A stretch of DNA of 64,000 nucleotides from Candidatus Omnitrophota bacterium (GTDB taxonomy: Bacteria; Omnitrophota; Gorgyraeia; JAFGHF01), in contig CP070837.1 in assembly GCA_020341815.1 (NCBI GenBank), forward strand, positions 1,300,575 to 1,364,574, in the 5' to 3' direction. Below are positions 1 through 45,363 of this stretch, one piece after another (within the stretch, counting starts at the first letter, position 1; every line of letters starts with the position of its first letter). Position numbers and translations under genes: made by a program. Below the pieces are notes generated by a model, which had not been told where the DNA came from, did not search any database, and worked only from the letters and a program-made list of their open reading frames with translations.

Positions 1-57
1 GTCTTATACTGGAAGTTTGGTTTAAATAAACCCGGTATATCTACGCAAAAAGTATCT

Positions 58-1173
58 GTGCAAAAGATGAAAAACGGCGAATTTCAGCTTTTAGCGAAGG
101 ATGAGCCTTACTTTGTAAAAGGAGCAGTCTATCATCCTATACCCATAGGGCAAAATCATCAGTACAACTTTTGGAACGATCCTAATCAACCCTGGATAGA
201 AGACGGGCGTCTGATGCATCGGATGGGGGTAAACACAGTGCGTTTTTTTCAACCGGGAGAAGAGGCTAAGGAAACTTGCAGAGTTATTGACCGTTTTTAT
301 CAGCTTTACGGAATCCGCACAATATTGGGCCACTGGATGGACTACTGGAATCCGGGAAATTATGCCGATACCCGCTATCGTGAAGATTTAACCAGACGGG
401 TATTGGAGATGGTCAATACATACAAAGACGAAGAAGGAGTTTTATTGTGGATACTGGGGAACGAAAACAATCTTTCCTGGCATTCCGGAGGGAAGGTTCC
501 CTGGACCTGCCCCGAAGTAGAGCAGATGCAAGACCCTCAGAAAAAAGAACAGGCCAAAGCCAAGATTTATTATTCTCTGGTTAATCAGATTGCCCGCGAG
601 ATTAAAAAGATAGACTCAGAACATCCGGTGGCCTTAGGTAATGCCGATTTCTATAGTCTGGAGGTGGCCGGGGAGGTTTGCCCGGATATCGATTTGATAG
701 CTCTTACTTGCTATCGCGGTAAAACCCTGGGCAATCTCTGGCGGGAAGTAGAGCGAAAGACCGGTAAGCCCGTCTTGGTTATGGAATTCGGTTGCGATAG
801 TTTTAATGCCAAGACAGGCCAGGAAGATCAGGAAATACAGTCTGTCTTCCTGAAAAGTCAATGGCAGGAAATCGAAGCTAATCGGGCCGGCTCAGGCGGT
901 GTGGGAAATGCTTTGGGTGGGTGTGTCTTTGAGTGGAACGATGAATGGTGGAAACACGATGAACATATGGTCTCCAGCTGGTTTGTGCACAATACCGAAG
1001 GCGACTGGTCCGCCGGCGGTTATTATTTCGATATCGCCGCGCCTAATAATATGAATGTCAATGAGGAATGGTGGGGAATTATCGCTTTAAGTCCGGAATT
1101 GGAAAACGGGATAAATAAACGCATTCCAAAGAGAGGGTATTATGAATTACAAGAAATATGGAAGCAGAAGTAA
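58..1173 (+). CDS. Glycoside hydrolase, TIM-barrel (clan GH-A-like). Possibly 5'-partial, because the frame stays open back to position 1.
   Basis: The 371-aa ORF carries an 'ILGNENN' acid/base-like motif and a 'VLVMEFGCDS' nucleophile-like motif typical of GH5/GH2-type (beta/alpha)8 hydrolases. No in-frame stop lies upstream of the window start. The 3' end overlaps the next gene. Confidence 0.45.
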   Translation: MQKMKNGEFQLLAKDEPYFVKGAVYHPIPIGQNHQYNFWNDPNQPWIEDGRLMHRMGVNTVRFFQPGEEAKETCRVIDRFYQLYGIRTILGHWMDYWNPGNYADTRYREDLTRRVLEMVNTYKDEEGVLLWILGNENNLSWHSGGKVPWTCPEVEQMQDPQKKEQAKAKIYYSLVNQIAREIKKIDSEHPVALGNADFYSLEVAGEVCPDIDLIALTCYRGKTLGNLWREVERKTGKPVLVMEFGCDSFNAKTGQEDQEIQSVFLKSQWQEIEANRAGSGGVGNALGGCVFEWNDEWWKHDEHMVSSWFVHNTEGDWSAGGYYFDIAAPNNMNVNEEWWGIIALSPELENGINKRIPKRGYYELQEIWKQK

Positions 1174-4100
1174 TTGCATCTGGAGAGTAATAAGATTTAT
1201 CACCATTTGCCTTACTCTTGTATTTCTGTTTAATACTCCGGCTTTTGCCTTGGGCTCAAGCGTGGCGGACTTCTTGTGTGAAATCGCAATAAAGTACTAT
1301 GAGCAGGGTAAATACGAAGACGCCCTGCACGAATTTAAAAAAGCTCTTATGGTTATGCCTCAGCATCCCCAGGCCCTGAAATATATTCAGGTTATTGAGC
1401 AGAAATTGGCTTTACTGAAACCGCAAAGAGAAATTATGCCGCCTGCAGAAGCAATTCAAGCCCTTGAGGTTTCCGAAGAGCTTGAGCGCAAAAAAGCGCT
1501 TAACCGGGCCCTGGATCAGGCAGAGGCATTAATTCTGGTGCCGGAAGCAGAAGCAGGCGAAGAAGAGGTAGAAGAAATAGAAGAATGGCAGATGCCTCAA
1601 GGTCCGCAGCCGGAGATGGAAGAAATATATCCGTCACCGGAAGAGGAAATTTATCCATACACAGCCGATGAAGAATTATATCCCTCGCCGCCAGAGGAAG
1701 CCTATTCCGAGCCGCTTATCGAAATGGCCAGAGCAGAAGACGAAGAACAATTTTATCCCCCCCATCCCGAAGACGAGGCAGAAACATCGATTTTTGTGCC
1801 GGAAGCAGAAGCAGGCGAAGAAGAGATGGAAGAGATAATACCGGAACCAATGGTTAAAAAAGGCGAAGAGGCTCCCGAAGAAACTTATGCGGCGAAGGAA
1901 GTGGAAAAGGAAAAAGATGAAGATACCTCCCCCATTAAAATTAGCGGAGAATTTTTGGTAAGCCTGGGCACTTCGGACAAGGAACTTATCTGGAAAGAGG
2001 CCAACGGCGATTACAATGAGGCCAACTGGCGCAGAATCGATGAGAGTTTTGGGGTTAATACATATGACAGGCGTATTTATGATAGATTACGCGTGAATAT
2101 CGATACGGAAAAGGAAGAAGGACTTAACTTCCATAGTAATATTACTATGGATCCCTGGACTTTTATCGGGAAATCAAATAAGATTAGAGCTACAAGTCTT
2201 GTAGGGGATGAGTCTGCCGAGATCCAGTTGAAATACTGGTCGGGCACAAGGTCGATAATAAATGAATCGGTTGATTTTACTACCGATGTTTTCAATATTC
2301 CCGAAACAAAAGTACTAGACGGGAAAGTTGCGCCTTTTAGGGCCAGAGGAATTGAATTCGCTGCGGATGCGTTTGATGTGGTGAATATTCCGGAACTGGA
2401 GATTCATCAGGATTACTGGCCGGTAAGAGAGTTGTGGTTTGATTATAAAAGTGAAGATAAATTCCATTTCCGCTTCTTTCCCGTTGCCTATCAGGACCAG
2501 GCCTTGAGTTCCGACGACCCCTTGAAGCTTTCCAACCATAGGATTTATTGGGAGGAAAGCCCCTGGCTGGACAGGTGGCAGTCGGGAAGGGTGCACACAG
2601 ACGTTGTGCCTGAGGATTTTACCAGGGGCCAGTGGGAGGATGATCTCTCCTTCTTTACCCGCGACAGCAATATGGTCTATCTGACTTCTCTGCGTGGCTA
2701 TTCTATGAAAAGCAAGCCTTGGGAAAATTTAACCATAGAATCGACAGCAGCCACCCCCAAAGGCCTGTGGCAGGATTACGATGCCGTGGATAATATTGCA
2801 GGGGCGACCAGGATCAAGTTTATACCGCAGGATGATTTACTTCTGGGTTTAATTCATACCTTTAGATATGGCTTGGAAAAGGGCGACCGTGATGCAGAGA
2901 ACAGGGTGGTCGGCGGCGATATTTGTTATAACTTTTTCTCCGACTTTCATGTAAAGGGTGAAGTCGCCCATAGCTGGGATGAACGCGATCTTACCCAGGA
3001 AACTTATGATACGGACAATGAAGGCAATGCCTATAAATTCGAACTTAAAAGAGGAAAGCTCAAGGAAGAAAGGCCGGAGAGATGGGATGAAGAGGCCTAT
3101 GCAAAGGCAGAGCCTTTTGATTACGCGCTGCGCCTTAGTTATACGCGTATGGATGAAGATTTTTATCCCGGCCTGGCCACTTATCGCATTACTCGCCGCG
3201 ACCCCTTCTGGGGAAGGCATATCCATTTTGAACAGCCCTATAGAGAATATTATGGCGGGCTTTATGAGCCCACCCTGACCTGGGACGACATCCGTCCCTT
3301 TCGTATCGGCGATTCCGTAGATATAGATAGAGAGGTGGCGGGCTTGAGACTGGAGAAGGCCTTCTTAGGAGGAGACCTGGAGACGCTCTTTGATTGCCGC
3401 CGGGCCCATGAAGTTTCCGAAGGCAAATATATTGAGACTATCGGCAGGACCGAAGCCGACTGGTATGCCAGCGAAAGACTCTTGATAAAATTTCTGGCCC
3501 TTTATCACGATTTGCCCGATACTACCGGCGGAATAGACCCTATCATTTACGATGTAGACAGCAATAAATTTTTACTTAACGATGAGATAGAGGATGGGGC
3601 AGATCCTTCTTTAAAAACGGTATCCGCGGGATTTCAGTATGGATTTTTTGATTGGCTGTCTTTCGATTGTATTTATGAACGTACCAATGATTTTACCGTG
3701 GCCCTGGATGATTATCCGCGCAGGCTGCTTAGTAACCCGAATTTTACCACTGTTACCGAAGATGGCTTAATCTGGCGGGAACCGGCGCCTTTTCTTTATA
3801 ACAATTATCTTTTTCCTTTGCCGTCTTATCCCTGGTTTAATATCTACAAGGCGGCATTGGAATTGGAGCCTAACGATGATTTGAAATTGAGAGTTGAGTT
3901 TACCAAGAATGATTATAAATTTGCCGGTCAAATAGACGATAATATTAACCATCTGGGCTTTGAGGCAGACTGGGATATTACCGAGAAGCTTTCTCTGCAA
4001 CTTAACTATACATATGCAAGAAGTTATAATCTATGGAAGCAGGTAAACGGGGTAGCCGACGGTGCATTGGAATACGAGAAGCACCACAATGCCTTTGTAA

Positions 4101-4264
4101 ATTTAAATTACAAAATGGATGATAAGGGGATTTTCACCGTGCAGTTCGGGGAAGGGGCGCTTATGCCTTATAGCGCAATGTTTACTACCAGCCCCTATTC
4201 CGGATTTATTCCGACCTTGGATACCGCCCACATCATCCGCGCCTATTTTAGCAGGAAATTTTAA
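1142..4264 (+). CDS. Large secreted outer-membrane protein: signal peptide, TPR-like N-terminus, acidic/proline-rich low-complexity repeats and a ~800-aa C-terminal beta-barrel-like domain ending in Phe.
   Basis: The N-terminus has a hydrophobic signal and a TPR-like motif ('YYEQGKYEDALHEFKKAL'). Residues ~130-250 hold PEAEAGEEE and E-I-Y-P repeats, encoded by a 45-bp near-identical DNA direct repeat at 1538-1588 and 1790-1840. The C-terminus '...RAYFSRKF' matches the outer-membrane beta-barrel C-terminal Phe signature. Architecture resembles TPR+porin exporters (BcsC/PgaA type), but no family is recognised. Confidence 0.4.
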   Translation: MNYKKYGSRSNCIWRVIRFITICLTLVFLFNTPAFALGSSVADFLCEIAIKYYEQGKYEDALHEFKKALMVMPQHPQALKYIQVIEQKLALLKPQREIMPPAEAIQALEVSEELERKKALNRALDQAEALILVPEAEAGEEEVEEIEEWQMPQGPQPEMEEIYPSPEEEIYPYTADEELYPSPPEEAYSEPLIEMARAEDEEQFYPPHPEDEAETSIFVPEAEAGEEEMEEIIPEPMVKKGEEAPEETYAAKEVEKEKDEDTSPIKISGEFLVSLGTSDKELIWKEANGDYNEANWRRIDESFGVNTYDRRIYDRLRVNIDTEKEEGLNFHSNITMDPWTFIGKSNKIRATSLVGDESAEIQLKYWSGTRSIINESVDFTTDVFNIPETKVLDGKVAPFRARGIEFAADAFDVVNIPELEIHQDYWPVRELWFDYKSEDKFHFRFFPVAYQDQALSSDDPLKLSNHRIYWEESPWLDRWQSGRVHTDVVPEDFTRGQWEDDLSFFTRDSNMVYLTSLRGYSMKSKPWENLTIESTAATPKGLWQDYDAVDNIAGATRIKFIPQDDLLLGLIHTFRYGLEKGDRDAENRVVGGDICYNFFSDFHVKGEVAHSWDERDLTQETYDTDNEGNAYKFELKRGKLKEERPERWDEEAYAKAEPFDYALRLSYTRMDEDFYPGLATYRITRRDPFWGRHIHFEQPYREYYGGLYEPTLTWDDIRPFRIGDSVDIDREVAGLRLEKAFLGGDLETLFDCRRAHEVSEGKYIETIGRTEADWYASERLLIKFLALYHDLPDTTGGIDPIIYDVDSNKFLLNDEIEDGADPSLKTVSAGFQYGFFDWLSFDCIYERTNDFTVALDDYPRRLLSNPNFTTVTEDGLIWREPAPFLYNNYLFPLPSYPWFNIYKAALELEPNDDLKLRVEFTKNDYKFAGQIDDNINHLGFEADWDITEKLSLQLNYTYARSYNLWKQVNGVADGALEYEKHHNAFVNLNYKMDDKGIFTVQFGEGALMPYSAMFTTSPYSGFIPTLDTAHIIRAYFSRKF

Positions 4265-4268
4265 AAAA

Positions 4269-6728
4269 ATGAAAGGAGAGAAAGGATTGAAGTACGGACA
4301 TTTTAGCAACGATGGTTTGGAATATGTTGTCACCACGCCAAACACGCCCCGCCCCTGGATTAATTATTTAACTAACGAAGAATATTGTGCCATTGTCTCA
4401 CAGACCGGCGGCGGTTACAGTTTCTTCAAAGACTGCCGTTCGGACAGGCTTACCCGCTGGCTTCCGGAGAACTGGCATTTTGACCGTCCCGGCCGCTATC
4501 TCTATCTCAAAGATGTTCATCCCACCGCAGCCCATGGCTCAAAAGTATGGGCGGCGACATATCAGCCTTTAAGAGTAAAACCGGATTTTTACGAATGCCG
4601 GCACGGATTGGGTTATACGACGATTGCAACGAAATATTTTGGCGTGCGTTCCGAGGTGACTTATTTTGTTCCGCGTCACGACAATTGCGAGCTCTGGCTG
4701 GCCAGGATTACCAATACAACCGATAAGGATAAAACCCTGGAGGTCTTTCCTTATGTAGAGTGGTTGCTCGGCGATTATCATCTGGAGTTACGTTACCGCA
4801 ATATTATGAATTTATACAATCGGGTCTGGTATGAAGCTAAAGATAGAGTTATTCTGGCCAAAAAGACCGCTGCCTGGGGCGATTTGAACATTAAGCCTTT
4901 TACCGATATTGCCTTTTTCGCAACGTCTTTGCCGGTAAAAGGTTATGCCACGCGCAAAAGCATATTTTTGGGCAAGTTCAATACCGAAGAAAATCCCGAA
5001 GGCCTGGTAATGAACGGCCGATTTAAAAATATCGGCTTTTGTTCGGGAGAAGACAGCATTGGTTGTCTGCGTCATACAATAAATCTTGCTCCAGGACAGA
5101 GTAAGGAATTTGCGGTGATTATGGGCCAGGTAGTTTCTCGGCCCAGCGCAAGAAATCTTATCCGGAAGTATCGCCAGGTTTCTAATGCAAAAAAGGAATT
5201 GTCCGAGGTGAAAAAAGTCTGGCGCAGGCGCATCGTTGATAATATCAAGATTGAGACGCCGGATAAGAATCTCGACCTAATAATGAATGTCTGGGTGAAA
5301 TACCAGCTTTATATCTGTAATTTCTGGTCGCGCTCGCCGTCTTTTTATCATGAGGGTTCAGGCGGACGGGGTTATCGCGATTCCTGTCAGGATAGTGAGG
5401 CTATTGTTTCTATTAACCCGGAGCTTACCCGTAAAAGAATCTTAACTTTGGCTTCTTTAATCAGGAAGGACGGCACCAGCGCTCCCGGGTTTTCCGAAGC
5501 GAATAAACCGCAAGGCCATCGGCCCAATAAAGACCATCCGATTTGGCTGACTACGACCGTCTCTGCTTATATTAAAGAGACCGGTGATAAAAAGATACTT
5601 CTGAAGAAATTACCTTATCTCAAAGACCGTTGGATTGACGGTTGGGAGATAGATGCGAACTTTAAAGGCTCTTCCAGATTTGAAGGAAGCGGGACTTTAT
5701 TCGAGCATCTGGAGAGGAACCTGAATTTCACCTTTAATGATGTGGGAAAACGAGGCCTGCCCTTAATCGGCCATGCAGATTGGAACGATGCCATTGACGC
5801 AGCCGGAATAAAGCTGAAAGGCGAAAGCGTCTGGCTGGCTCAGGGCCTGGTGCGCTCTTTAAAGCAGTTAAGCGAACTGGCCTGTCTTATCGGAAAAGAA
5901 AAGAGAGCGAAAGAACTCACCCGTAAAGCCGAAATTATGTCCGAGCGCATCAACAAATATTGCTGGGATGGGGCCTGGTACAAAAGAGGCTTTACCGATA
6001 ACGGCAGTGTATATGGAAGCAGGCAAAACACCGAAGGAAAGATTTATCTGAACAGCCAGTCCTGGGCAATACTTTCCGGTGTGGCCAAGAACGAAAGATT
6101 AAATAAGGTGTTAAGTTCGGTGAATAAATATTTAGACGGGCCGCACGGACTGGCTTTGTTTTATCCGGCTTATTCCAAGTTTGACTCAAGGCTGGGGAGA
6201 ATCAGTATGTTTGCCGAGGGTACAAAGGAAAATGCCGCCGTATTTTGTCATGCGGCAACCTTTATGGCTGTAGCTTATTGCCTGGCAGGCAGAGGTCAAG
6301 AGGCGTATGAGGCGTTAAGGAAGATTATGCCCAGCGCCCAGGCCGATTACGATGTCTATAAGACCGAGCCCTATGCCTATGCCGAATATTTAGTGGGGCC
6401 GGAGCACCCCTATCTTTATGGGGAAGGAGCCTTTACCTGGATTACCGGCACCGCCGGCTGGAACTTTATGGGTGCCTGTGAATATCTTTTAGGTATTCAG
6501 AGGGATTTTTCCGGATTAAGGATTAATCCTTGTATTCCCAAAGACTGGAAGGCATTTAAAATCAGGCGGCCATTTAGAGGCAACGTTTATGAAATAGAAG
6601 TGGAGAATCCGCATCAAGTCTCACGGGGAATAGAAAAGATTTTAGTAGACGGTCGGCCCATAAAAGGCAACCTCGTTCCTGCTTTTGCCGACGCAAAGAC
6701 GCACAAGGTTAAAGTAATAATGGGGTGA
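4269..6728 (+). CDS. GH94 glycoside phosphorylase (cellobiose/chitobiose phosphorylase family).
   Basis: The N-terminus 'MKGEKGLKYGHFSNDGLEYVVTTPNTPRPWINYLTNEEY...GGGYSFFKDCRSDRLTRW' is collinear with cellobiose phosphorylase N-termini, and the ~819-aa length is typical for CBP. The start was chosen at ATG 4269, just after the upstream gene's stop. The ORF-track start at 4119 overlaps that gene. Confidence 0.8.
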   Translation: MKGEKGLKYGHFSNDGLEYVVTTPNTPRPWINYLTNEEYCAIVSQTGGGYSFFKDCRSDRLTRWLPENWHFDRPGRYLYLKDVHPTAAHGSKVWAATYQPLRVKPDFYECRHGLGYTTIATKYFGVRSEVTYFVPRHDNCELWLARITNTTDKDKTLEVFPYVEWLLGDYHLELRYRNIMNLYNRVWYEAKDRVILAKKTAAWGDLNIKPFTDIAFFATSLPVKGYATRKSIFLGKFNTEENPEGLVMNGRFKNIGFCSGEDSIGCLRHTINLAPGQSKEFAVIMGQVVSRPSARNLIRKYRQVSNAKKELSEVKKVWRRRIVDNIKIETPDKNLDLIMNVWVKYQLYICNFWSRSPSFYHEGSGGRGYRDSCQDSEAIVSINPELTRKRILTLASLIRKDGTSAPGFSEANKPQGHRPNKDHPIWLTTTVSAYIKETGDKKILLKKLPYLKDRWIDGWEIDANFKGSSRFEGSGTLFEHLERNLNFTFNDVGKRGLPLIGHADWNDAIDAAGIKLKGESVWLAQGLVRSLKQLSELACLIGKEKRAKELTRKAEIMSERINKYCWDGAWYKRGFTDNGSVYGSRQNTEGKIYLNSQSWAILSGVAKNERLNKVLSSVNKYLDGPHGLALFYPAYSKFDSRLGRISMFAEGTKENAAVFCHAATFMAVAYCLAGRGQEAYEALRKIMPSAQADYDVYKTEPYAYAEYLVGPEHPYLYGEGAFTWITGTAGWNFMGACEYLLGIQRDFSGLRINPCIPKDWKAFKIRRPFRGNVYEIEVENPHQVSRGIEKILVDGRPIKGNLVPAFADAKTHKVKVIMG

Positions 6729-8128
6729 AAATGGAAAGAAGAGAGTCTATCCGTTTGGAAAAGACTCTGCCGGTAAAGTTTGACTTACCTGACGTACCCG
6801 CAACTGGCAGCGTTAATGCCTTAGCCAGAAATATCGCCGAGGGCGGAATATTTATTGAAACCGACCTTGTCCAGGATGAAGAAATCAGTTTAGTTAGAGA
6901 GTCGCCTTTAAATTTGGAGTTTGAGCTTTTAGGCCATATACAAAGAATAAAGCCGAAGGCGAGAATCGCCTGGATAAGCAGGAAATCCGCTACCCAAAAG
7001 GAAAGGAACGGCTTTGGCGTAAGATTTATTCAGCTGGGACCCAGAGAAAAAAGGATAATTTCATTATTTATCTCGAGAGAATCGCTGGCGAAAGACGAGC
7101 TTGTAGAAAAAGAAACACCCGTTATATCGGGAGAGCAAAAGTTAACCGACAGACAGCGCAGAAACTTAAAGATTCTGGATGTCATCAGAAAAAACAGGCT
7201 GATTTCGCGGGCTGAAATCTCCAAGAGCACCGGCATAAATATAGTTACGGTCTCTAATTATATTGACACCTATCTTAAAAAGGGCCTGGTTTTTGAAAGA
7301 GGCCTGGACATCTCAACAGGAGGCAGGCGTCCGGAACTGGTGGAGATAAATCCCGACTATGGATATGCCATCGGGGTAGATTTAGGCCCTTTAAGTGAAA
7401 GCCCTGCCCGGATAGCGGTAGCGGCCGTTGATTTTACCGGCCGCGTGAAGGCGAGCGCCTTGAGAGAAAGAGGCAGCGACAATATTGAAGATTCCGTGGT
7501 TGTCTCCAAGGACTTGATTAAAGAGATATTGGCAAATGACGCGCTTGATAAAAGACGGGTCAGGGGAATTGGCCTGGGTATTTCCGGAATAATGGATAAG
7601 TTCGGCGGTACCGTGCGCAATCCTTCTACAAAGGTTACCTACGCCAATTACCTGGCGATTAAAAAAGAATTAGAGGATGAGTTCGGTCTTCCGGTATTTA
7701 TTGAAAATGCCACCAGTTGTGCCTTGTTCGCCGAGAAATGGGTGGGCTTAAGCCCGGAGGCGAGAGCGGCCGATAATATTATTTATATCTTTTCGGAGCA
7801 TCAATGCGCAATTATGCTTAAGGGCGAGCTCTATACAGGGACCAGTAAAAGCGCTGGACTCTTAAATCTTGTCCAGGACCTGGGGATATCTCTGGATGTC
7901 AAGATTGCCTATCTGGTAAATATTTTTAATCCCCAGGTGGTCGTAATAGGCAGGAACTTTTTCCAGTCGCCGGATGCGTTTTCAGACACTATTCGCCGGA
8001 CAGTCAGCCGCTGGGCCTTTCGGGAAGGGGCGCAACAGGTGCGGATTATTCCTGCTACTTTGGAGGAGACAGCCACGGCCCGGGGAGCGGCCTCTTTAGT
8101 AATCGAGGCTGCTTTTGCGAATATATAA
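6725..8128 (+). CDS. PilZ-domain / ROK-family (NagC/XylR-like) fusion transcriptional regulator.
   Basis: The N-terminus has PilZ motifs: RRxxxR ('RRESIR') and a DxSxxG-like motif ('NIAEGG') about 30 aa later. The middle has a winged-HTH ('ILDVIRKNRLISRAEISKSTGINIVTVSNYID'). The C-terminus is a ROK sugar-kinase-like fold ('AIGVDLGP...') that lacks the Cys-rich zinc motif. The start overlaps the GH94 stop (ATGA). Confidence 0.55.
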   Translation: MKMERRESIRLEKTLPVKFDLPDVPATGSVNALARNIAEGGIFIETDLVQDEEISLVRESPLNLEFELLGHIQRIKPKARIAWISRKSATQKERNGFGVRFIQLGPREKRIISLFISRESLAKDELVEKETPVISGEQKLTDRQRRNLKILDVIRKNRLISRAEISKSTGINIVTVSNYIDTYLKKGLVFERGLDISTGGRRPELVEINPDYGYAIGVDLGPLSESPARIAVAAVDFTGRVKASALRERGSDNIEDSVVVSKDLIKEILANDALDKRRVRGIGLGISGIMDKFGGTVRNPSTKVTYANYLAIKKELEDEFGLPVFIENATSCALFAEKWVGLSPEARAADNIIYIFSEHQCAIMLKGELYTGTSKSAGLLNLVQDLGISLDVKIAYLVNIFNPQVVVIGRNFFQSPDAFSDTIRRTVSRWAFREGAQQVRIIPATLEETATARGAASLVIEAAFANI

Positions 8129-8305
8129 GTAAGGCCACGACTTAGTGAATGATAATGAAACTAAGTCGTCTGGCCGAACTTATCCCGATAGCTGCAAGAA
8201 AATTTATTCTAAATTTTCGCAGTGTTTTGCTATCGGGATTAATTCACACTTATCACTTACGTCACTATTGTTCCGTAAGTGATGTGCTCATTAAAAGGTG
8301 GGGGG

Positions 8306-9481
8306 ATGGATAAAAAGATTAAACTCCTTTTGGTTGTTTTGGGGTTGATTTCTCTGTTGGGGGCGGGTCTTTCGGCGTGGATTTATTTTTCCGCCCAGGA
8401 AGAAATTATCAGATACGAGGATAAGTATAGCGAATTAGAAAAGAATAATGCATATCTTCGCCAGGGATTGGATGTTGCCGAGAAGGAAAGCCGCCAGTGG
8501 CGGGAAAAGGCGGAGCTTGTAACTGCCACTCTCAATGAATTGAGCCAGAAGTTTAATCTCCTGCAGCAGCAGTATGTATCTTTGAATAAAGAGAAGGATT
8601 CGCTATTCGATGAAAATAAAAGCCTTCTTGAGCAATTGGAGAAAATGAAAGGATTTTATTCCAAAGTTCAGGAGGAAAGGTTAGAAATAATAGAAAAAGT
8701 AGAAGTAGATGCTTCGGATGAATTCTTATCTTCTCTCTTAAAGGAAAAGGCGGCCCTGCAGGTAGAAATAGAAAAGTTAAGAGGGCAGATTGAGAGCGTA
8801 AAGAAGCAAATACGGCCTTCGCAGAATGAATTTGTCAAACTGGAACTAGAAAAAGGCTCGGTGGAGAAAAAATTAAGCGATATGGAGCGTGCCTCAGGCC
8901 TCTTAAGCAGTGATCTTTTGCAGGAGAGAAAAAAGAGGAGTTCTTTAGAGGAGGAGTTAGTCAGAACCGAAGGCCGGCTTTACCGCATAACCCAGGAAAA
9001 AGATAAGCTCGCCGAGCAACTTACCAAGATGAAGCAGGCCCTGGAGAAGAGGCTTCTTGAGTTAAGCGATACGAAGAAGGTGTTGGAAAGCGCGGTCGAG
9101 GGGGCAAAGAAGGCGATGCAGAAGACAGATGCAGGTATCGGCTCCATTGAATTGTCGCCCATTGTGGTAAAGGCAGAGCCGCCGAAAAAAGAGGCGCAGG
9201 AAATTGCGCCGCCGGCGAAAGAACCGCCGAAAAAAGAGGTGCAAGAGAAGCACTTCACGATAGAAGGCCGCATTATTACGATTAACGACAAACATAAGTT
9301 TGTGGTAATTGATATAGGCCGGGATGCCGGCGTGGAAAAGAAAATGCCTTTTAGTGTCTATCGCCAGGATAAAGAAGTAGGAAAAATAGAAGTAATTGAG
9401 GCGCGCAAAAATATCGCTGCCTGCGATATTAAAGAGATGAAGGTCAAGAATTTCGAAATTAACGACAGCGTACGCAGATGA
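8306..9481 (+). CDS. Membrane-anchored coiled-coil protein with a PEPPKKE repeat and a C-terminal beta-rich domain.
   Basis: ATG at 8306 is preceded by the RBS AAAGGTGGGGGG. The product has an N-terminal TM helix, a long heptad-rich region, a 'PPKKEAQEIAPPAKEPPKKEVQEK' repeat and a C-terminal ~80-aa domain. Confidence 0.4.
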   Translation: MDKKIKLLLVVLGLISLLGAGLSAWIYFSAQEEIIRYEDKYSELEKNNAYLRQGLDVAEKESRQWREKAELVTATLNELSQKFNLLQQQYVSLNKEKDSLFDENKSLLEQLEKMKGFYSKVQEERLEIIEKVEVDASDEFLSSLLKEKAALQVEIEKLRGQIESVKKQIRPSQNEFVKLELEKGSVEKKLSDMERASGLLSSDLLQERKKRSSLEEELVRTEGRLYRITQEKDKLAEQLTKMKQALEKRLLELSDTKKVLESAVEGAKKAMQKTDAGIGSIELSPIVVKAEPPKKEAQEIAPPAKEPPKKEVQEKHFTIEGRIITINDKHKFVVIDIGRDAGVEKKMPFSVYRQDKEVGKIEVIEARKNIAACDIKEMKVKNFEINDSVRR

Positions 9482-9978
9482 GAAAGATAATAATTTATTT
9501 TTTGATTTCTGCAGCTTCTCTTGTCTTGCCGGCGAAAGAGACAGGGGCCGAAGAAGATAAGTACGCGCAGGTTATGCGCGAGATGGCTAAAATCCATTAT
9601 ACTCGCGCAAGGAGTTATTATCGTAATGCAGAATACATAAAGGCAAAGATAGAATTAAGAGAGGTTTTAAGACTCGCCCCCGGCCATCAGGGTGCCCTAT
9701 GGTATCTCGATTGCGTAGAAAGAGCCTTGGATAGTCAGAAAGAGGCCTGCGGAAGCCGCCAGGCGAAATTAGCGAAATTAGAAAGAGAAGACAGGCTCAG
9801 TGAGGTGCAGGTGGCATTAAGCGCAGCCCAAGAGATAGAAGTGGATGAGCGCGACGCCGAAAGGGACGAGATAATAAACGAACTTTACAGGAAAGGCAAG
9901 GACTATTTTTCCCGCGGCCTTTACGCGAAAGCCATTGCCTGTTTTGAAAAGGTAATAAAATTAGCAGGAAAATATTGA
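9478..9978 (+). CDS. Secreted TPR-like protein.
   Basis: Signal peptide plus TPR-like helices. The start overlaps the upstream stop (ATGA), suggesting translational coupling. Confidence 0.35.
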   Translation: MRKIIIYFLISAASLVLPAKETGAEEDKYAQVMREMAKIHYTRARSYYRNAEYIKAKIELREVLRLAPGHQGALWYLDCVERALDSQKEACGSRQAKLAKLEREDRLSEVQVALSAAQEIEVDERDAERDEIINELYRKGKDYFSRGLYAKAIACFEKVIKLAGKY

Positions 9979-9980
9979 GA

Positions 9981-10095
9981 TGAACCCCGCTCTTCCAAAA
10001 CATCACGCCTTGCATAAAAGATATGGGTGAAGGCGGTAGGAGGAAGGATGGGGATAAGGGTTTGGCATTACAAAGAAAGGAAGGGCGGGGTGAAG
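9981..10095 (+). repeat. MITE/REP-like inverted-repeat element, copy A (TIRs TGAACCCCGCTCTTCC ... GGAAGGGCGGGGTGAAG).
   Basis: It starts 2 nt after the upstream stop codon. Its interior is ~90% identical to copy B. The 3' terminus carries the GTG (10090) used as the bioY start. Confidence 0.7.
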
Positions 10096-10680
10096 GCCTT
10101 AGAGTTATCCCGGAGTTTTTTACATAGAGAAATCGCTCTTGATCGGACCGCATCAAGAGTAATAGGACTTTGCTGCTTTACTATCCTGACGGCTTTGGGG
10201 GCTTATGTGCGCATTCCCTTGCCGTTTACGCCGGTGCCTATTACCTTGCAGACCTTTTTTGTTTTGCTTTCCGGGGCAGTGCTGGGGAAGAAATGGGGAG
10301 CCTTGAGCCAGCTAAGCTATCTTTTGCTGGGCATTATGGGTTTGCCGGTCTTTACGGGGACTGGGGCGGGCCTATCTTACCTTTTTGGGCCCACGGGAGG
10401 ATATCTTCTGGGATTTGTTGCGGCCAGCTGGATAGTCGGGTCTGCGCTTGAGCGAAGGTCTGCAAATAATACAAGCCGGATTACGCTGGCGATACTCAGC
10501 GGCTCTTTAGCAGGAATTTATCTTTTCGGGATTTCGGGATTAAGGCTCTTTTTGCAGTGTAATTTCTCAAAGGCAGTGGCCTTGGGATTTTTACCTTTCA
10601 TACCCGGAGATATTATAAAGATTATTAGCGCAGTCTTTATCTATGGCAAAATTCAAAAAAGATGCCTAGAATTATTTTAA
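10090..10680 (+). CDS. bioY: Biotin transporter BioY (ECF S-component).
   Basis: 'TLQTFFVLLSGAVLGKKWGA...GLPVFTG...GPTGGYLLGF' is the BioY signature. The start is proposed at GTG 10090 inside the repeat terminus. The longer ORF-track start at 10027 would translate repeat sequence. Confidence 0.7.
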   Translation: MKALELSRSFLHREIALDRTASRVIGLCCFTILTALGAYVRIPLPFTPVPITLQTFFVLLSGAVLGKKWGALSQLSYLLLGIMGLPVFTGTGAGLSYLFGPTGGYLLGFVAASWIVGSALERRSANNTSRITLAILSGSLAGIYLFGISGLRLFLQCNFSKAVALGFLPFIPGDIIKIISAVFIYGKIQKRCLELF

Positions 10681-11291
10681 TTTCCTTGGCTATTCCGGTG
10701 TTTCTCATAGCCGCTTCCGCCTCAGCCGAAATGAAAGATGCGAGATTCCAGAACCGGCATGGAGTGAGAATCGCAACCAGCGACAGCGACGATAGTTTTT
10801 ATGTGACCCGGGCCGGGGCTCTTGTAGATTACAGTTTTCCCCGCTTGAATAAAATTATAAAAATTCTGCCCTTTTTCGAATACCAGCATAATCTCGATAA
10901 TGGCGCCTGGTGGAGAAAAGAAGCCGGCGTAGAAGTGGGCAGTTCTTTTTTTAATGATTGTTTTTACTGGGGTGCTTCCTTTCAGCATATCTGGCAGCAG
11001 GAGGAGAATTACGCTGTTGAGGCCAACGATGAGACCAGTGAATGGGAATCGCGTTTCGTGATTACCCCTCCCATAAAATGGTGGCTCTTTAAAGATAAAT
11101 TGACCTTGAAGCTTTTTGATGAATATACCTATGATTTCGAAAGAGGCCAGCCCACTATTAATGAAGTGGGCGTGAGTTTCGACTGGCAGATTAGCGAAAA
11201 AGTAAAAATGCCCCTTGGCTGGAGGCATATAGACAGGATTCATGATTTTGATTCTGACTTGATGGAAGTATCCGTATTGTTTTCCTTTTAA
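10662..11291 (+). CDS. Small secreted outer-membrane beta-barrel-like protein (hypothetical).
   Basis: Signal peptide; C-terminus '...SVLFSF' ends in Phe; alternating amphipathic strands. Confidence 0.3.
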   Translation: MPRIILISLAIPVFLIAASASAEMKDARFQNRHGVRIATSDSDDSFYVTRAGALVDYSFPRLNKIIKILPFFEYQHNLDNGAWWRKEAGVEVGSSFFNDCFYWGASFQHIWQQEENYAVEANDETSEWESRFVITPPIKWWLFKDKLTLKLFDEYTYDFERGQPTINEVGVSFDWQISEKVKMPLGWRHIDRIHDFDSDLMEVSVLFSF

Positions 11292-11307
11292 CCGGAGAGA
11301 GACAACT

Positions 11308-12267
11308 ATGAGACGACACATTGTATCTTTTGTAACGATGGTAATAATCTTAGGCAGCTATGCGAAGATTTCTTCTGCTTACTGGATCTGGACTCCCCAG
11401 ACCGGAAAGTTTATCAATCCCAAATATGCGGTAAAGGAGACGCCCCAGAAACAGTTTGACTGGGCGATGACTTTCTTTGAGGCCGAGGATTACAAAAAGG
11501 CAATCGCCGAATTCGAGAAGCTCATCAAGCATTATCCTCTTTCAAAGCTTGCGGCCTCCAGCCAGTTTCATCTGGCCTGGGCCCAGGAAAATACGGGGGA
11601 TTATTACAAGGCATTCAAGAGTTATCAACTGGTTATCGATAAATATCCCTACTCGGAACGGGTGGATGAGATAATCGAAAGGCAATACCGTATCGGTAAT
11701 CTCTTCTATAGCGGACAGAAGGCCAAGCTCTTAGGCGTGCCTATATTGCCCGCAAAAAAACAGGCCATAGAAATCTTTAGCGCAGTGGTTGAGAACGCCC
11801 CCTACGGCAAATACGCCCCTTATGCCCAGTACAAATTGGGTGAATGTTATATGGAGATAGAAGATTATATCAATGCGGCCTTGGCCTTTAAGAAAATTAT
11901 CGAGAGTTACCCCAAAAGCCCCTTAGTTGACGACGCCAAGTACCAGATAGCAATGTGCGCGGCAAATTCCACCAGCGGCCCGGAATACAATGAAGAGGAT
12001 ACGGATAAGGCGATTAAAGAATTTAAAGATTTCGTCAGGAGATATCCCGACAGCCAGATGGAAAAAGAGGCCCACCAGCTTATCGATAAACTGGAAGACC
12101 AGAAGGCCCAAAATCAATTCAATATTGCCCGTTTTTATGAAAAACAGAAAAACTTAGACAGTGCTATTATTTATTACGAGGAGATACTGGACAAATATCC
12201 CCAGAGTGAATGGGCGGTCAAGGCCCTGGAGCGGGTACAGATAATCCGCAAAGAGATGGAAAAGTAA
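11308..12267 (+). CDS. bamD: Outer membrane protein assembly factor BamD-like TPR lipoprotein.
   Basis: Signal sequence, multiple TPR motifs ('EDYKKAIAEFEKLIKHYP', 'ARFYEKQKNLDSAIIYYEEILDKYPQSEWA') and the ~300-aa size typical of BamD/YfiO. Confidence 0.5.
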   Translation: MRRHIVSFVTMVIILGSYAKISSAYWIWTPQTGKFINPKYAVKETPQKQFDWAMTFFEAEDYKKAIAEFEKLIKHYPLSKLAASSQFHLAWAQENTGDYYKAFKSYQLVIDKYPYSERVDEIIERQYRIGNLFYSGQKAKLLGVPILPAKKQAIEIFSAVVENAPYGKYAPYAQYKLGECYMEIEDYINAALAFKKIIESYPKSPLVDDAKYQIAMCAANSTSGPEYNEEDTDKAIKEFKDFVRRYPDSQMEKEAHQLIDKLEDQKAQNQFNIARFYEKQKNLDSAIIYYEEILDKYPQSEWAVKALERVQIIRKEMEK

Positions 12268-12270
12268 TTA

Positions 12271-12385
12271 TGAACCCCGCCCTTCCAAAACATCATACTT
12301 TGCATAATAGATATGGGCGAAGGTGGCAGGAGGAAGGATGGGGATAAGGGTTTGGCATTGCGAAGAAGGGAAGGGCGGGGTGAAG
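12271..12385 (+). repeat. MITE/REP-like element, copy B.
   Basis: It begins 3 nt after the bamD stop. The TIRs are TGAACCCCGCCCTTCC / GGAAGGGCGGGGTGAAG. The GTG at 12380 is the lptE start. Confidence 0.7.
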
Positions 12386-12940
12386 AGATTTAATTTTATA
12401 TTCTTATTATTGGCTATAGCATGCATGCAGGGTTGCGGCTATACCGCAGGTTCGCTGCTTCCTTCACACATCAAGACAATTCATATCCGCCCTTTCCGAA
12501 ATAAAATAGAGCTGACCGGGGAATTGAGACAGGAGGAATATCGTTTTCGCAGCTATCGCACGCATCTGGAAACGGATATCACCAAAGAGGTTATCTCGAG
12601 ATTCATAAACGACGGGCACCTCCAGGTGATTGATGAGAAAAATGCGGATGTAGTTTTGGAGGGTGAGCTGATCGATTATCTCAGCCAACCCGTGCGTTAC
12701 GGCTCCGATAACGAGACCGTCGAGGAATACAGAATCAGCATAGTCTGTTCCGTTAAGCTCAACGATATAAAGGAAAATAAACTTATGTGGCAGGAGTCGC
12801 GGATTATCGGCGATACCACTTATAGCGACAGCGACCAGAGTCAAGCGCGGGGATATTATACGAGCGAAAGCACTGCGGTATCCAGCGCTGTTTCCGATTT
12901 AGCCAGGCGCATTGTCAATCGCACCATTGAAGGATGGTAA
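12380..12940 (+). CDS. lptE: LPS-assembly lipoprotein LptE.
   Basis: From GTG 12380: 'VKRFNFIFLLLAIACMQGC|GY', a lipoprotein signal peptide with a lipobox. It lies immediately upstream of holA, the conserved lptE-holA synteny. ~185 aa. Confidence 0.55.
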   Translation: MKRFNFIFLLLAIACMQGCGYTAGSLLPSHIKTIHIRPFRNKIELTGELRQEEYRFRSYRTHLETDITKEVISRFINDGHLQVIDEKNADVVLEGELIDYLSQPVRYGSDNETVEEYRISIVCSVKLNDIKENKLMWQESRIIGDTTYSDSDQSQARGYYTSESTAVSSAVSDLARRIVNRTIEGW

Positions 12941-13806
12941 GCTCAAGAGAGGCACCAGTATATCTGCTCACCGGCAGCGAGCAATTCTTAAAAGAAGAAA
13001 ATCTCACTCGGATTAAATCCGCCCTTTTAGATGCGGCCTCGCGAGATTTCAACTTCAATGTCTTTTATGCAGGCTCCTGCGCGGTTAAGAAGATATTGGA
13101 ATGCGCCTCCACAGCGCCTTTTCTCGGGTCTAAAAGAGTGGTCCTGGTGCACCGAATCGAGGATTTTTCCGCCTCCGAAGAAAAGCTCATCCTTTCCTAT
13201 GTAAAAGTCCCCAATAAAGTTAGCGTGCTTATTCTAGAGACTTCAGAGAGCAATCTTAAACAGAGATTTTTTGCCGAGATTTGCAGGCATGCCCGGCTTA
13301 TTCGTTGTGATCCTCTTAAAGGAAGAGAGCTCGTCATTTGGCTTAAGAGGCAGGTTGCGGCCAAGGGTAAAAAAATAGAAGAGGCGGCCCTCCAGCTTTT
13401 ACTGGATACCTCAAGGCTTAGTTTGCAGGCTTTGGCTTTCTCTCTGGATAATCTTATTTTATATATCGGGCAGAAAGAGACGATTACCTGCGCTGACGTG
13501 GAGAAGTTAACCGGCTCAGACGATATGGCCTCAAGCGCATTTGAGCTTTATGATGCCGTTATTGCCGGTGAGAAAGAAAAATCTTTTGAGGTCCTGGAGA
13601 GTTTATGGAGAGATGGCGTAAGCTTCTCGCAGATCTTAGGGGCTTTAAGCTACAAGTTTATACTGAACAGGAATAGGATAAGTTCCGGCAGGCTCAAAGG
13701 CTATCTTTTGGATTTACAAAATACCGACAGGGATATCAAGACTTCAAGACAGGGACAAAAAATAGCGCTGGAACTTTTGACGGCGAGACTCTTAAACCTT
13801 GGTTAA
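12934..13806 (+). CDS. holA: DNA polymerase III delta subunit.
   Basis: N-terminus 'VYLLTGSEQFLKEE' with delta-subunit-like architecture; overlaps the lptE stop. Confidence 0.6.
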   Translation: MVSSREAPVYLLTGSEQFLKEENLTRIKSALLDAASRDFNFNVFYAGSCAVKKILECASTAPFLGSKRVVLVHRIEDFSASEEKLILSYVKVPNKVSVLILETSESNLKQRFFAEICRHARLIRCDPLKGRELVIWLKRQVAAKGKKIEEAALQLLLDTSRLSLQALAFSLDNLILYIGQKETITCADVEKLTGSDDMASSAFELYDAVIAGEKEKSFEVLESLWRDGVSFSQILGALSYKFILNRNRISSGRLKGYLLDLQNTDRDIKTSRQGQKIALELLTARLLNLG

Positions 13807-14052
13807 TTTTCGCATCAGGCGGGATTTTTTGCGCCAGGCTTTATTCTTATGAATTATCTTTTTGCTTGAGGCCTTATCTAATTTGGAGCTCAGCTGATTA
13901 AGTATCTTTTTTGCCTGCTCGACCTTTTTCTCATCCACAAGGGCTAAAAACTTCTTGTTTAAGGTCTTTAATTCAGAGATTGCCCCGATATTCCGCAGAT
14001 GTCTTTTTTTGGCCTTGCGCAGTTCTTTGAAGGCTGATTTTTTTATTGGCAT
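13792..14052 (-). CDS. rpsT: 30S ribosomal protein S20.
   Basis: 'MPIKKSAFKELRKAKKRHLRN...KKIIHKNKAWRKKSRL' is the S20 signature; divergent from murJ, as in many bacteria. Confidence 0.85.
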   Translation of the reverse strand: MPIKKSAFKELRKAKKRHLRNIGAISELKTLNKKFLALVDEKKVEQAKKILNQLSSKLDKASSKKIIHKNKAWRKKSRLMRKLTKV

Positions 14053-42980: not shown

Positions 42981-44065
42981 GGTGCGCGGCGCATCAGCAT
43001 TATGGCGACGGTGGAGAAGAGGAAATTGGCAAACCACGCCGATATAATCGGCGGCAGAGTTCCGCCTTTACCTAAAGCAAGGCTTAGGGCCTCTACCGTG
43101 TAATAGAAGAAGGCAATGACTACCGAAAGCCCGATACTGGCTACTTTTCCGGTGCCTTGCGTAGAAAGGGCAAAAGGGATACCCAAGAATATAATTATCA
43201 AACTGACAAAGGGAAAAGAAATCTTATAATGCAAATCCACCAGCAGCTTCTGCACAATCTTGGCTCCGCTTCCCGAGAGCCTCCTGATATATTCTCTTAA
43301 TTTCTGGTAATTCATAAACTCAGCCGAGGCCTCCCGCCTTAGGAAGTCCTTGGGCTTTTCTTCGATACCGATGAGCATCTTCTTGAAAAAGGCCGGCTCG
43401 GCATTTTCCTCTTCCTTATCGTTAAAATTGTAAACAACGCAGTCATTGAATGCCCACTTATTTCCCTGCCATTGTGCGCTTTTGGCCTGAATCTTGGCGA
43501 TAACCCGTTCCTCATTATCCTGCTCCAGGATAGTTATTTCTTCAAGGAGGTTGCTCTTGGTGTAGAATTTGCGCACATGAATGAGGCGGTTGTGCGCCCC
43601 GTAAAGAGCGATATTTTCCACTATTCTCTCTTGGAGCTGTGCCTTTTCTTTATCAAGATGTTCTTCTTTTACGGTGGCCGAAACAAGGTTTGCCTGAGGA
43701 ACGATTTTATCGTTAATCACCAGCGTAGCCATGCTGATAACTATCCCCAGGAAGAAAAAAGGCAGCACCATTCTCCAGATGCTTAAGCCCGTTGCTTTAA
43801 GGGCGATTATTTCATTGTATTTACTGAGATTTCCCAGTATATAGAGGGTGGAAAGAAGTGCTGCGATAGGCGCGGTGCGCACAAAGATTATCGGCAGAAA
43901 GGCCCCGTAATACTGAAGAAGCACTGACCATTCCACATGGTGTTTAAGGATATCCTCCAGGCGGCCGCAGAGGTCAATAACTACATAGAGGCTAATAAAC
44001 ACCGTCAGGCAGTAGAAAAAGGGCACCAGGAATTCTCTGACTATATAGCGGTCGATTATTTTCAC
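42974..44065 (-). CDS. lptG: LPS export ABC permease LptG/LptF family (YjgP/YjgQ).
   Basis: 'KIIDRYIVREF' N-terminus with six TM helices. The GTG start at 44063-65 lies inside repeat copy E. Confidence 0.7.
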   Translation of the reverse strand: MKIIDRYIVREFLVPFFYCLTVFISLYVVIDLCGRLEDILKHHVEWSVLLQYYGAFLPIIFVRTAPIAALLSTLYILGNLSKYNEIIALKATGLSIWRMVLPFFFLGIVISMATLVINDKIVPQANLVSATVKEEHLDKEKAQLQERIVENIALYGAHNRLIHVRKFYTKSNLLEEITILEQDNEERVIAKIQAKSAQWQGNKWAFNDCVVYNFNDKEEENAEPAFFKKMLIGIEEKPKDFLRREASAEFMNYQKLREYIRRLSGSGAKIVQKLLVDLHYKISFPFVSLIIIFLGIPFALSTQGTGKVASIGLSVVIAFFYYTVEALSLALGKGGTLPPIISAWFANFLFSTVAIMLMRRAPK

Positions 44066-44196
44066 CCCGCCCTTCCTTTCATCTCATCGTAATCTTAGGT
44101 CCAATTTTAACTTTGCTAGACTGTCTCTGCATTGCTTTATAGCTTTTACCCTTGCCCTTAATTGTAAGTATGCGGTTTTAGGAAGAGCGGGGTTCA
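44062..44196 (-). repeat. MITE/REP-like element, copy E (between lptF stop and lptG start).
   Basis: The TIRs are TCACCCCGCCCTTCC ... GGAAGAGCGGGGTTCA with a unique interior. The GTG-bearing terminus faces lptG. Confidence 0.6.
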
Positions 44197-45290: not shown

Positions 45291-45363
45291 CCCGCTCTTC
45301 CTTTCTTCCCAATACCACTTGCCTATCCCCAATCCTTCCGATGTTTAGGAAGGGCGGGGTTCA
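45287..45363 (-). repeat. MITE/REP-like element, copy F (between comF stop and lptF start).
   Basis: The TIRs are TCACCCCGCTCTTCC ... GGAAGGGCGGGGTTCA. Confidence 0.6.

Follow-up and report, generated by a model that had tools for sequence, protein, structure and literature searches.

What signal does a bacterial regulator respond to when it is built like a sugar repressor, lacks the residues with which such repressors bind sugar, and carries a second-messenger domain at its N-terminus? The question is raised by a gene in a 64 kb stretch of DNA from Candidatus Omnitrophota bacterium (64,000 nucleotides of contig CP070837.1, positions 1,300,575 to 1,364,574; termed here the window). The gene product has a PilZ domain with a conserved arginine switch, and this is fused via a long helix to the winged helix-turn-helix (wHTH) and ROK domains of a regulator family specific to Omnitrophota. 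The sugar and zinc determinants of the ROK domain have decayed progressively in the fused clade, and in the window copy they are deleted. The best explanation, held with moderate confidence, is that input from c-di-GMP (cyclic dimeric guanosine monophosphate) through the PilZ domain replaces the sugar input of the ROK domain, and thereby controls operator binding and the adjoining genes.

The assignment of the N-terminal domain is based on profile and fold comparisons. The PilZ profile PF07238, for which the gathering cut-off is 22.5 bits, matches with a score of 34.2 (E = 3.4e-8) and is covered from position 1 to 99 of 102. The PilZ paralogue-domain model TIGR02266 also matches, at E = 2.9e-8, under that model's own cut-off. 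An AlphaFold2 model of residues 1–135, made with an alignment of 34 family sequences, has a predicted local distance difference test score (pLDDT) of 72 and a predicted template modelling score of 0.64, and displays six strands followed by a long helix at residues 106–128. When this model was compared with the PDB by Foldseek, ranks 1–37 were all PilZ domains, with query-normalised TM-scores of 0.41–0.66. The top ranks are occupied by c-di-GMP-bound receptors (MotI/DgrA, YcgR, Alg44, BcsA, MapZ, PA4608, PlzA and MrkH), and the non-binding PilZ proteins XC1028 and XAC1133 are placed below them.

The two c-di-GMP signatures of PilZ domains, RRxxxR and (D/N)xSxxG, are both present. The first reads R5-R6-E-S-I-R10 and the second N36-I-A38-E-G-G41, with a spacing of 26 residues. 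A preliminary description of the locus, made from the sequence alone, had placed both signatures in the N-terminal part and had given the second one with Ala at the position that is canonically Ser; both observations are borne out. The arginine switch is kept throughout the family. The 34-sequence alignment (A4), every row of which covers the region, shows no variation at R6 or R10. An 18-sequence alignment of close relatives (A1) has no exchange at R10, N36 or G41, and at least 90% of its rows have R6 and G40; the only row without R6 is that of P0022, which is truncated at the N-terminus. Sixteen divergent representatives (28–38% identity) have R6 and R10 in at least 90% of cases and an invariant G41. 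In a census by regular expression, each of the 52 untruncated PilZ-ROK members proved to have (R/K/Q)RxxxR and, after it, [D/N]x[S/G/A]xxG.

The Ser of the second motif takes part in the c-di-GMP contacts of canonical PilZ domains. At this position the 52 untruncated members have Gly (27), Ser (18) or Ala (7), and no other residue. The canonical Ser predominates in divergent PilZ-ROK branches and is therefore probably ancestral; P0008 and P0121 are among the proteins that have it. Gly is found in most close relatives. Position 38 is limited to small residues beside invariant neighbours, and it looks like a constrained, ligand-facing turn. Gating of the regulator by c-di-GMP via the PilZ domain is plausible on these residue patterns.

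The wHTH follows the connecting helix, which was seen in two AlphaFold2 models. The Pfam profile HTH_24 matches residues 146–189 with 23.5 bits against a cut-off of 21.9, and the region aligns to XylR and to residues 18–90 of the Listeria ROK repressor Lmo0178, i.e. to the DNA-binding domain of the latter. Across the PilZ-ROK clade and the related proteins that have a ROK domain and no PilZ (ROK-only paralogues), no other block is as well conserved as the wHTH. The PilZ-wHTH-ROK architecture read from the sequence in the preliminary description is upheld, since all three domains are above their Pfam cut-offs, and Foldseek supports the PilZ and ROK folds.

The ROK profile PF00480 matches the C-terminal part with 65.1 bits against 22.9, in two separate pieces with profile positions ∼150–213 missing. 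By sequence, the best solved relative is Lmo0178 (E = 1.1e-22). Residues 148–378 of the regulator align to 18–240 of Lmo0178 and residues 382–464 to 309–391, and ∼65 residues of the Lmo0178 chain are left unmatched. A full-length AlphaFold2 model, used only for the ROK fold search, has 5f7q, Lmo0178 on its operator, as its best Foldseek match (E = 2.4e-14, 395 columns). At E ≤ 0.001 the search gave 78 PDB fold matches, of which the first 50 are without exception ROK proteins or related sugar kinases. Thus the fold is that of a ROK protein, with a deletion at residues 378–382. At this junction relatives have 'AGQLNL…CW…C…', and the ROK-only paralogues have 'AGELNL…CW..YGYGCC…' plus ∼40 amino acids.

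In canonical ROK proteins, Asp, Glu/His and Cys motifs bind the sugar and a structural zinc. The corresponding sensor region was mapped via a full-length Omnitrophota paralogue onto solved ROK proteins, together with family alignments, and a graded series is seen. Solved ROK proteins have NDAN, AGE(V/F)GH and CxCGxxGC at the Asp motif, the Glu/His motif and the Cys loop, respectively. ROK-only Omnitrophota paralogues (∼419 amino acids) have HDAT, AGELNL and CW..YGYGC(C), with a helical segment of ∼40 amino acids. Most PilZ-fused members have EN(S/A)x, AGQLNL and CW…C and lack the helical segment. The window protein has ENAT and AGLLNL; the Cys segment is absent and ∼65 amino acids are missing. 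The Asp motif reads 'ldndanvaalgerw' in the glucokinase 2qm1, 'iehdatlaafgerw' in a ROK-only paralogue and 'IENATSCALFAEKW' in the window protein, and the Glu/His motif reads 'agevgh', 'agelnl' and 'AGLLNL', respectively. The Asp of NDAN is thus replaced by Ala, the Glu of AGExGH by Leu and the His by Leu.

These losses are not confined to the window protein. The Cys segment is also absent in seven of the 17 close relatives that were aligned (P0002, P0007, P0010, P0015, P0027, P0029 and P0034), and in this alignment the members without the loop, the window protein among them, look polyphyletic. Regular-expression searches of the 54 PilZ-fused members, the window protein included, found neither the CxCGxxGC zinc motif (0/54) nor the PROSITE ROK signature PS01125, [LIVM]xxG[LIVMFCT]Gx[GA]…GxxG[RKH] (0/54). 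Where that signature is expected the window protein has IYIFSEHQCAIMLKGELYTGTSKSAGLL, and the whole regulator contains only two Cys. The loss of the zinc motif had been read correctly in the preliminary description, and it extends to the ∼65 residues absent relative to Lmo0178. A few fused relatives have a more intact pocket: P0133 has 'SNDAT' and 'GAGELTL', and P0121 has 'SAGELTI' and keeps both the CW…C loop and the helical segment in its long form. The family thus spans intermediate states of sensor loss, with the motifs eroding step by step. Because the sugar- and zinc-binding residues are replaced or deleted, the ROK domain of the window protein is best seen as a scaffold or oligomerisation module and not as a sugar sensor. 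A kinase function is ruled out by the wHTH and by the loss of the GxGxG and Asp motifs.

The fusion is rare. The product of the gene is 100% identical by sequence search to P0001, the NCBI entry 'ROK family protein [Candidatus Omnitrophota bacterium]'; a JGI label reads 'sugar kinase/PilZ'. A word-indexed search of 5.8 billion proteins gave 35 PilZ+ROK clusters at 90% identity, all from Omnitrophota where the source is named, followed by ROK-only paralogues at ∼45% identity. An exhaustive profile search of 1.84 billion representatives at 50% identity gave 303 matches at E ≤ 1e-30, among which ∼15 clusters contain PilZ, as judged by a match beginning at profile position ∼2. Among 185,579 GTDB species genomes, 259 loci with relatives were found, and ∼10 of these are fused. 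In the 259 loci the length of the N-terminal region ahead of the GGRRP wing is cleanly bimodal, ∼194–236 versus ∼69–71 amino acids. The idea that a divergent PilZ domain is hidden in 'ROK-only' loci at 31–35% identity was rejected on the basis of this bimodality. Loci L011, L016, L017 and L019 belong to records that bear the title 'uncultured Planctomycetia bacterium' or, in the case of L019, 'Patescibacteria group bacterium', and their neighbourhoods are of the Omnitrophota type. Probably the titles reflect a labelling or binning issue and not a real spread to other phyla.

A literature search found no paper that describes the PilZ-ROK architecture, in agreement with the preliminary description, which knew of no characterised example. 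A survey of 28,223 PilZ proteins does not mention ROK (10.1101/2020.02.11.943704). The architecture thus proves to be neither widespread nor characterised, and the NCBI label is still that of a plain ROK protein.

Among the closest proteins are the uncharacterised Omnitrophota wHTH-ROK paralogues of ∼419 amino acids (for example P0056, P0079 and P0114). They share 41–47% identity with the regulator over the wHTH-ROK region and have the motifs NIVT(V/I)SNY and GLDISxGGRRP; some adjoin a GH94 or coiled-coil gene. They differ in having no PilZ domain and in retaining the HDAT Asp, the AGELNL Glu, the CW..YGYGC(C) loop and the helical segment. They are the direct evolutionary source of the PilZ-ROK proteins. 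The characterised ROK repressors (Lmo0178, Mlc, NagC and XylR/MecR2) resemble the regulator in the wHTH, the two-lobed ROK domain and a location beside sugar-catabolic genes. The window protein differs from them by its additional N-terminal PilZ domain and helix (∼135 amino acids), and it is without the ROK signature, ExGH, the catalytic/sugar-binding Asp and the Cys3His zinc site.

Among c-di-GMP-dependent regulators, MrkH of Klebsiella pneumoniae is described in a 2025 review as the only characterised PilZ-based c-di-GMP transcription factor, and it has no canonical helix-turn-helix (HTH) (PMC12564702). MrkH is similar in linking DNA binding to a PilZ domain that bears motifs of the RxxxR and D/NxSxxG types (PMC12564702; 10.1101/2020.02.11.943704), and its structures 5ejl, 5kgo and 5kec align to the window PilZ model at Foldseek ranks 28–36. 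However, MrkH has tandem PilZN-PilZ domains and contacts DNA via a C-terminal helix, whereas the window protein has a single PilZ domain that is N-terminal to a wHTH and a ROK domain. Identity is 12–14%, and outside the shared PilZ fold the two sequences are unrelated. The survey of PilZ proteins has a 'PilZ + C-terminal HTH' cluster 15 of 97 uncharacterised proteins, with a role in gene expression predicted from sequence. These proteins also have PilZ fused to an HTH, but are described as 140–280 amino acids long with two domains and no ROK, which sets them apart (10.1101/2020.02.11.943704). FleQ, VpsT, VpsR, BldD, BrlR, Clp and LtmA share the property that c-di-GMP directly modulates a DNA-binding regulator; their sites, however, are lineage-specific (AAA+, REC, CAP-like and others), none being PilZ and none of the proteins ROK (PMC12564702).

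The features of the locus are listed in Table 1.

Table 1. Features of the PilZ-wHTH-ROK locus (window coordinates)
Feature	Coordinates	Strand	Basis or remark
GH158-like clan GH-A glycoside hydrolase	58..1173	+	Best PDB sequence match 'Glycoside hydrolase family 158', E = 3.8e-8
1040-amino-acid (aa) protein: signal/transmembrane segment, one TPR, C-terminal outer-membrane beta-barrel-like region	1142..4264	+	Pfam
GH94 cellobiose-phosphorylase-like gene	4269..6728	+	Pfam and PDB
PilZ-wHTH-ROK regulator gene	6725..8128	+	467 aa from GTG 6725, 465 aa from the likelier ATG 6731
PilZ domain, aa 4–115, six-strand beta-barrel	6734..7069	+	Pfam, AlphaFold2 and Foldseek
RRESIR, aa 5–10, RRxxxR arginine switch	6737..6754	+	Read from sequence
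NIAEGG, aa 36–41, (D/N)xSxxG variant with Ala for Ser	6830..6847	+	Read from sequence
Long alpha-helix, aa 106–128, joining the PilZ barrel to the wHTH	7040..7108	+	AlphaFold2 secondary structure, two models
wHTH, aa ∼141–205, wing motif GLDISTGGRRPEL	7145..7339	+	Pfam HTH_24, Lmo0178 alignment
Degenerate ROK domain (actin-like ATPase fold), aa ∼212–461	7358..8107	+	Pfam and Foldseek
Deletion junction, aa 378–382 (…SAGLLNL/VQDL…, slash at the junction)	7856..7870	+	ExGH/Zn-Cys loop and helical segment gone relative to Lmo0178 240–309
Structured gap between regulator and coiled-coil gene, three hairpins	8126..8285	+	Minimum free energy -62.7 kcal/mol, z = -8.69; inverted repeats I1–I5
Transmembrane, coiled-coil and small C-terminal beta-domain protein, 400 aa	8279..9481	+	No Pfam, NCBIfam or PDB family

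The regulator gene adjoins the GH94 gene, as was stated in the preliminary description. The latter gene is well supported by Pfam (Glyco_hydro_94, E = 1.8e-110; GH94 supersandwich, E = 2.3e-65) and by an end-to-end match to the cellobiose phosphorylase 3qde at E = 1.7e-152, versus E = 3.4e-43 for laminaribiose phosphorylase. The GH94 stop codon is TGA 6726–6728, which shares four nucleotides (GTGA) with the regulator GTG at 6725. The ATG at 6731 is two nucleotides past this stop. GGGG (6722–6725) precedes it with a spacing of 5 nt, and relatives whose sequence opens with 'ME(K/R)R' have their Met at the corresponding position. Because of this spacing and the match to the relatives, ATG 6731 is the likelier start codon. 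Translational coupling of the regulator to GH94 would fit with either start.

At the other end of the GH94 gene, the mechanically called open reading frame (ORF) begins at 4119, with its first 146 nt lying in the end of the preceding gene, and the alignment to solved cellobiose phosphorylases begins at the Met at 4269. The true start is probably this ATG, 4 nt past the upstream stop. With this start, four genes overlap or are spaced by 4 nt or less. The first of them, coding for the GH158-like protein, has weak Pfam matches to the GH72 and GH2_C TIM barrels as well, and orthologues with 68–78% identity are found at the same position in L003, L005, L007, L011, L012 and L014. Within the window the co-directional cluster opens with this gene; the start and promoter of the operon are beyond the window edge. 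The second gene has counterparts in L005, L011 and L012 and none in L007. Its product has TPR_1/TPR_2 at residues 42–75 and a weak MtrB_PioB porin match at residues 926–995; its PDB sequence matches are to the TPR only.

The gene downstream of the regulator specifies a protein with an N-terminal transmembrane helix, a long coiled coil and a conserved C-terminal beta-domain motif, …GRIITINDKHKFVVIDIGRDAGV…. Of the PilZ-ROK loci whose 3′ side is visible, L001, L003, L005, L007, L010, L011, L012 and L017 have this gene directly downstream of the regulator, and in L019 one gene lies between the two. It also adjoins some ROK-only relatives (L034, L075 and L078), and it may be a conserved regulatory target. 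On the upstream side, which is visible in 11 fused lineages, the immediate neighbour is GH94 in seven, a GH158-like gene in two and unrelated genes in two. In L019, whose regulator is 29% identical, GH94 and GT2 precede the regulator and the coiled-coil gene is retained. Gene gaps in relatives are tight and the genes co-directional, and ∼12 ROK-only paralogues are within 10 kb of a GH94 gene. Thus the GH94 link is real and frequent but not universal, and the invariant neighbour is the downstream coiled-coil gene. Beyond 9481 there follow, in order, genes for a TPR protein, BioY, a ∼200-amino-acid protein, BamD, LptE, HolA and S20. The regulator is at a conserved boundary, with a variable beta-glucan cluster on one side and a conserved envelope/housekeeping block on the other.

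Other genes near the loci of relatives deserve mention. Stand-alone PilZ genes of 112–128 amino acids are found at L003:954-1292, L003:20167-20553 and L007:12100-12462. One such gene lies between those for the ∼200-amino-acid protein and BamD; it is absent from the window, where the gap at 11291–11308 is too short. The presence of these genes suggests that PilZ signalling is widely used in the lineage of the regulator. L005 has, just downstream, a set of genes that resembles a diversity-generating retroelement (L005:13418-21212: genes for a 1730-amino-acid protein, a protein with an Lcl_C domain, bAvd (PF22296) and an RVT_1 reverse transcriptase) and a PemK-type toxin pair at L005:12651-13219.

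The ∼150 nt between the regulator stop (8128) and the coiled-coil start (8279) are highly structured. A perfect 9+3+9 palindrome, GAAAATTTAttcTAAATTTTC, is at 8198–8218. The central hairpin of the gap has a 59-nt inverted copy, 90% identical, at L011:1372-1430, and the closest relative, L010, is without the structured-gap element. The central hairpin is probably a small dispersed palindromic repeat, similar to repetitive extragenic palindromes or to miniature inverted-repeat transposable elements (MITEs), and its membership in the regulatory system is uncertain. A c-di-GMP riboswitch or other known RNA was considered for this gap and rejected: there is no Rfam match at E ≤ 1 in positions 1–14000, and part of the gap is the dispersed repeat.

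A second repeat of ∼104 nt is found farther downstream. Two full copies, 90% identical, are at 9992–10095 and 12282–12385 and have the inverted termini CCCCGCCCTTCC … GGAAGGGCGGGG; partial copies are on the minus strand at 45286–45339 and 44061–44080. The full copies are just 5′ of the BioY and LptE ORFs, where they are misread as the first ∼20 codons ('GGRMGIRVWH…'), and the true starts of BioY and LptE are likely to be downstream of the repeat. An element with similar ends follows the regulator in L014. The ∼104-nt repeat is probably MITE-like or regulatory.

How the regulator might work can be outlined from these data. Binding of c-di-GMP would order the N-terminal RxxxR loop on the PilZ barrel. 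The signal would then pass via the helix at residues 106–128, or via docking or dimerisation of PilZ, to the wHTH pair of a ROK-mediated oligomer, and operator engagement by the wHTH would change; c-di-GMP, and not a sugar on the ROK domain, would be the allosteric input. The regulator would be co-transcribed with the beta-glucan cluster that it ends (GH158-like, TPR/outer-membrane protein and GH94 genes), would probably control this cluster, and would be autoregulatory. The downstream gene for the coiled-coil membrane protein may also be controlled. Glycan catabolism or surface functions would in this way be tied to the c-di-GMP state of the cell. By analogy with ROK repressors, one may guess that the protein is a repressor whose affinity for DNA is altered by c-di-GMP. 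A more far-reaching form of the proposal is that the PilZ-ROK proteins are the first class of transcription factor in which PilZ drives a canonical winged HTH, having arisen by a sensor swap onto a sugar-repressor chassis whose pocket then decayed, with intermediates extant, and that they place polysaccharide catabolism and an envelope coiled-coil protein under direct c-di-GMP control. This is advanced tentatively and falls somewhat short of an even chance.

Several points weigh against regulation by c-di-GMP. Where the second PilZ motif canonically has Ser, the window protein has Ala and the majority of its close relatives have Gly, and the literature that was searched gave no experiments on either substitution; the only related item is a passing mention that S147A of YcgR differs from R118D in c-di-GMP binding (PMC12393566). 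No credible GGDEF, EAL or HD-GYP gene was found by motif search in the window, and no credible GG[DE]EF motif in 1.28 Mb of related loci; both searches cover gene neighbourhoods and not whole genomes, and are uninformative at the genome level. An operator census of the non-coding gaps of 12 PilZ-ROK lineages revealed no conserved palindromic operator, with no half-site/spacer combination in more than two lineages. The census made use of crude gene calls and exact inverted half-sites of 6 or 7 nt with spacers of 0–14 nt, and the operon promoter of the window genome is outside the window. The full-length AlphaFold2 model, made with 18 sequences, is poor at the wHTH and linker (pLDDT 27–47) and thus uninformative on PilZ-wHTH contacts. 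In addition, synteny is the sole basis for naming the target genes, and the make-up of the upstream cluster is not constant from lineage to lineage.

The first two of these points are also what would be expected if the PilZ domain were degenerate and did not bind c-di-GMP, serving instead in protein contacts or oligomerisation as in P. aeruginosa PilZ and Xanthomonas XC1028, so that the regulator would be a ROK-type DNA-binding protein that is independent of ligand or controlled by a partner. Many non-canonical PilZ proteins exist, according to the PilZ survey (10.1101/2020.02.11.943704). Known non-binders, however, are without RxxxR and/or the second motif, whereas here both Arg residues, N36 and G40/G41 vary little or not at all, only Gly, Ala and Ser occur at the variable position, as they might in a constrained ligand-facing turn, and c-di-GMP-bound PilZ folds rank above non-binding ones in the fold search. 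A non-binding PilZ domain is therefore considered rather unlikely. The ROK half of the protein raises a different question, namely, whether two inputs are integrated at the operator, with the ROK domain still sensing a beta-glucoside or other sugar and the PilZ domain sensing c-di-GMP. This was in essence the proposal of the preliminary description. ROK regulators such as Mlc, NagC and XylR usually sense sugars, and this one ends a beta-glucan/GH94 cluster. But the substitutions of the Asp, Glu and His, the deletion of the ∼65-residue zinc-Cys loop with only two Cys left in the chain, and the absence of the ROK signature and zinc motif from all 54 fused proteins speak against it. The proposal is not supported for the window copy, where the sugar and zinc determinants are replaced or deleted; dual sensing might apply only to a few relatives that keep a more canonical pocket, such as P0133 and P0121, and is quite unlikely as an explanation of the regulator. 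PilZ seems to have taken the place of the sugar input instead of being added to it, which fits the data better than dual sensing.

One may also ask if the protein is simply a conventional ROK kinase or repressor, as the NCBI name implies, with an irrelevant N-terminal extension and a PilZ match that is due to chance or to a gene-calling artefact. This is effectively refuted: the PilZ match is 12 bits over the gathering cut-off and its fold is confirmed, ∼50 proteins from independent contigs share the conserved extension, and the N-terminal lengths before GGRRP fall into two classes. The explanation by a PilZ input that replaces the sugar input remains the preferred one.

PilZ as a fusion module and c-di-GMP-binding transcription factors are known already. 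What is new is the PilZ-wHTH-ROK combination with an apparent replacement of the sensor, which is undescribed and rare. Enzymes that make or break c-di-GMP far outnumber the effectors of the messenger. The small size of the family, its confinement to one phylum and the fact that PilZ is already known for promiscuous fusions limit the impact; ligand binding is, moreover, a prediction from sequence. If the proposal is correct, PilZ would gain a further class of output in the PilZ-ROK proteins, and c-di-GMP would be connected for the first time with the large family of ROK regulators. The fused clade also provides a graded natural series, from full to shortened to deleted ROK sensor loops, by which a change in input signal can be tested through comparison of variants. 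For the Omnitrophota, an uncultured phylum with small genomes, the regulator would offer a first handle on signalling and on the regulation of carbon-source use.

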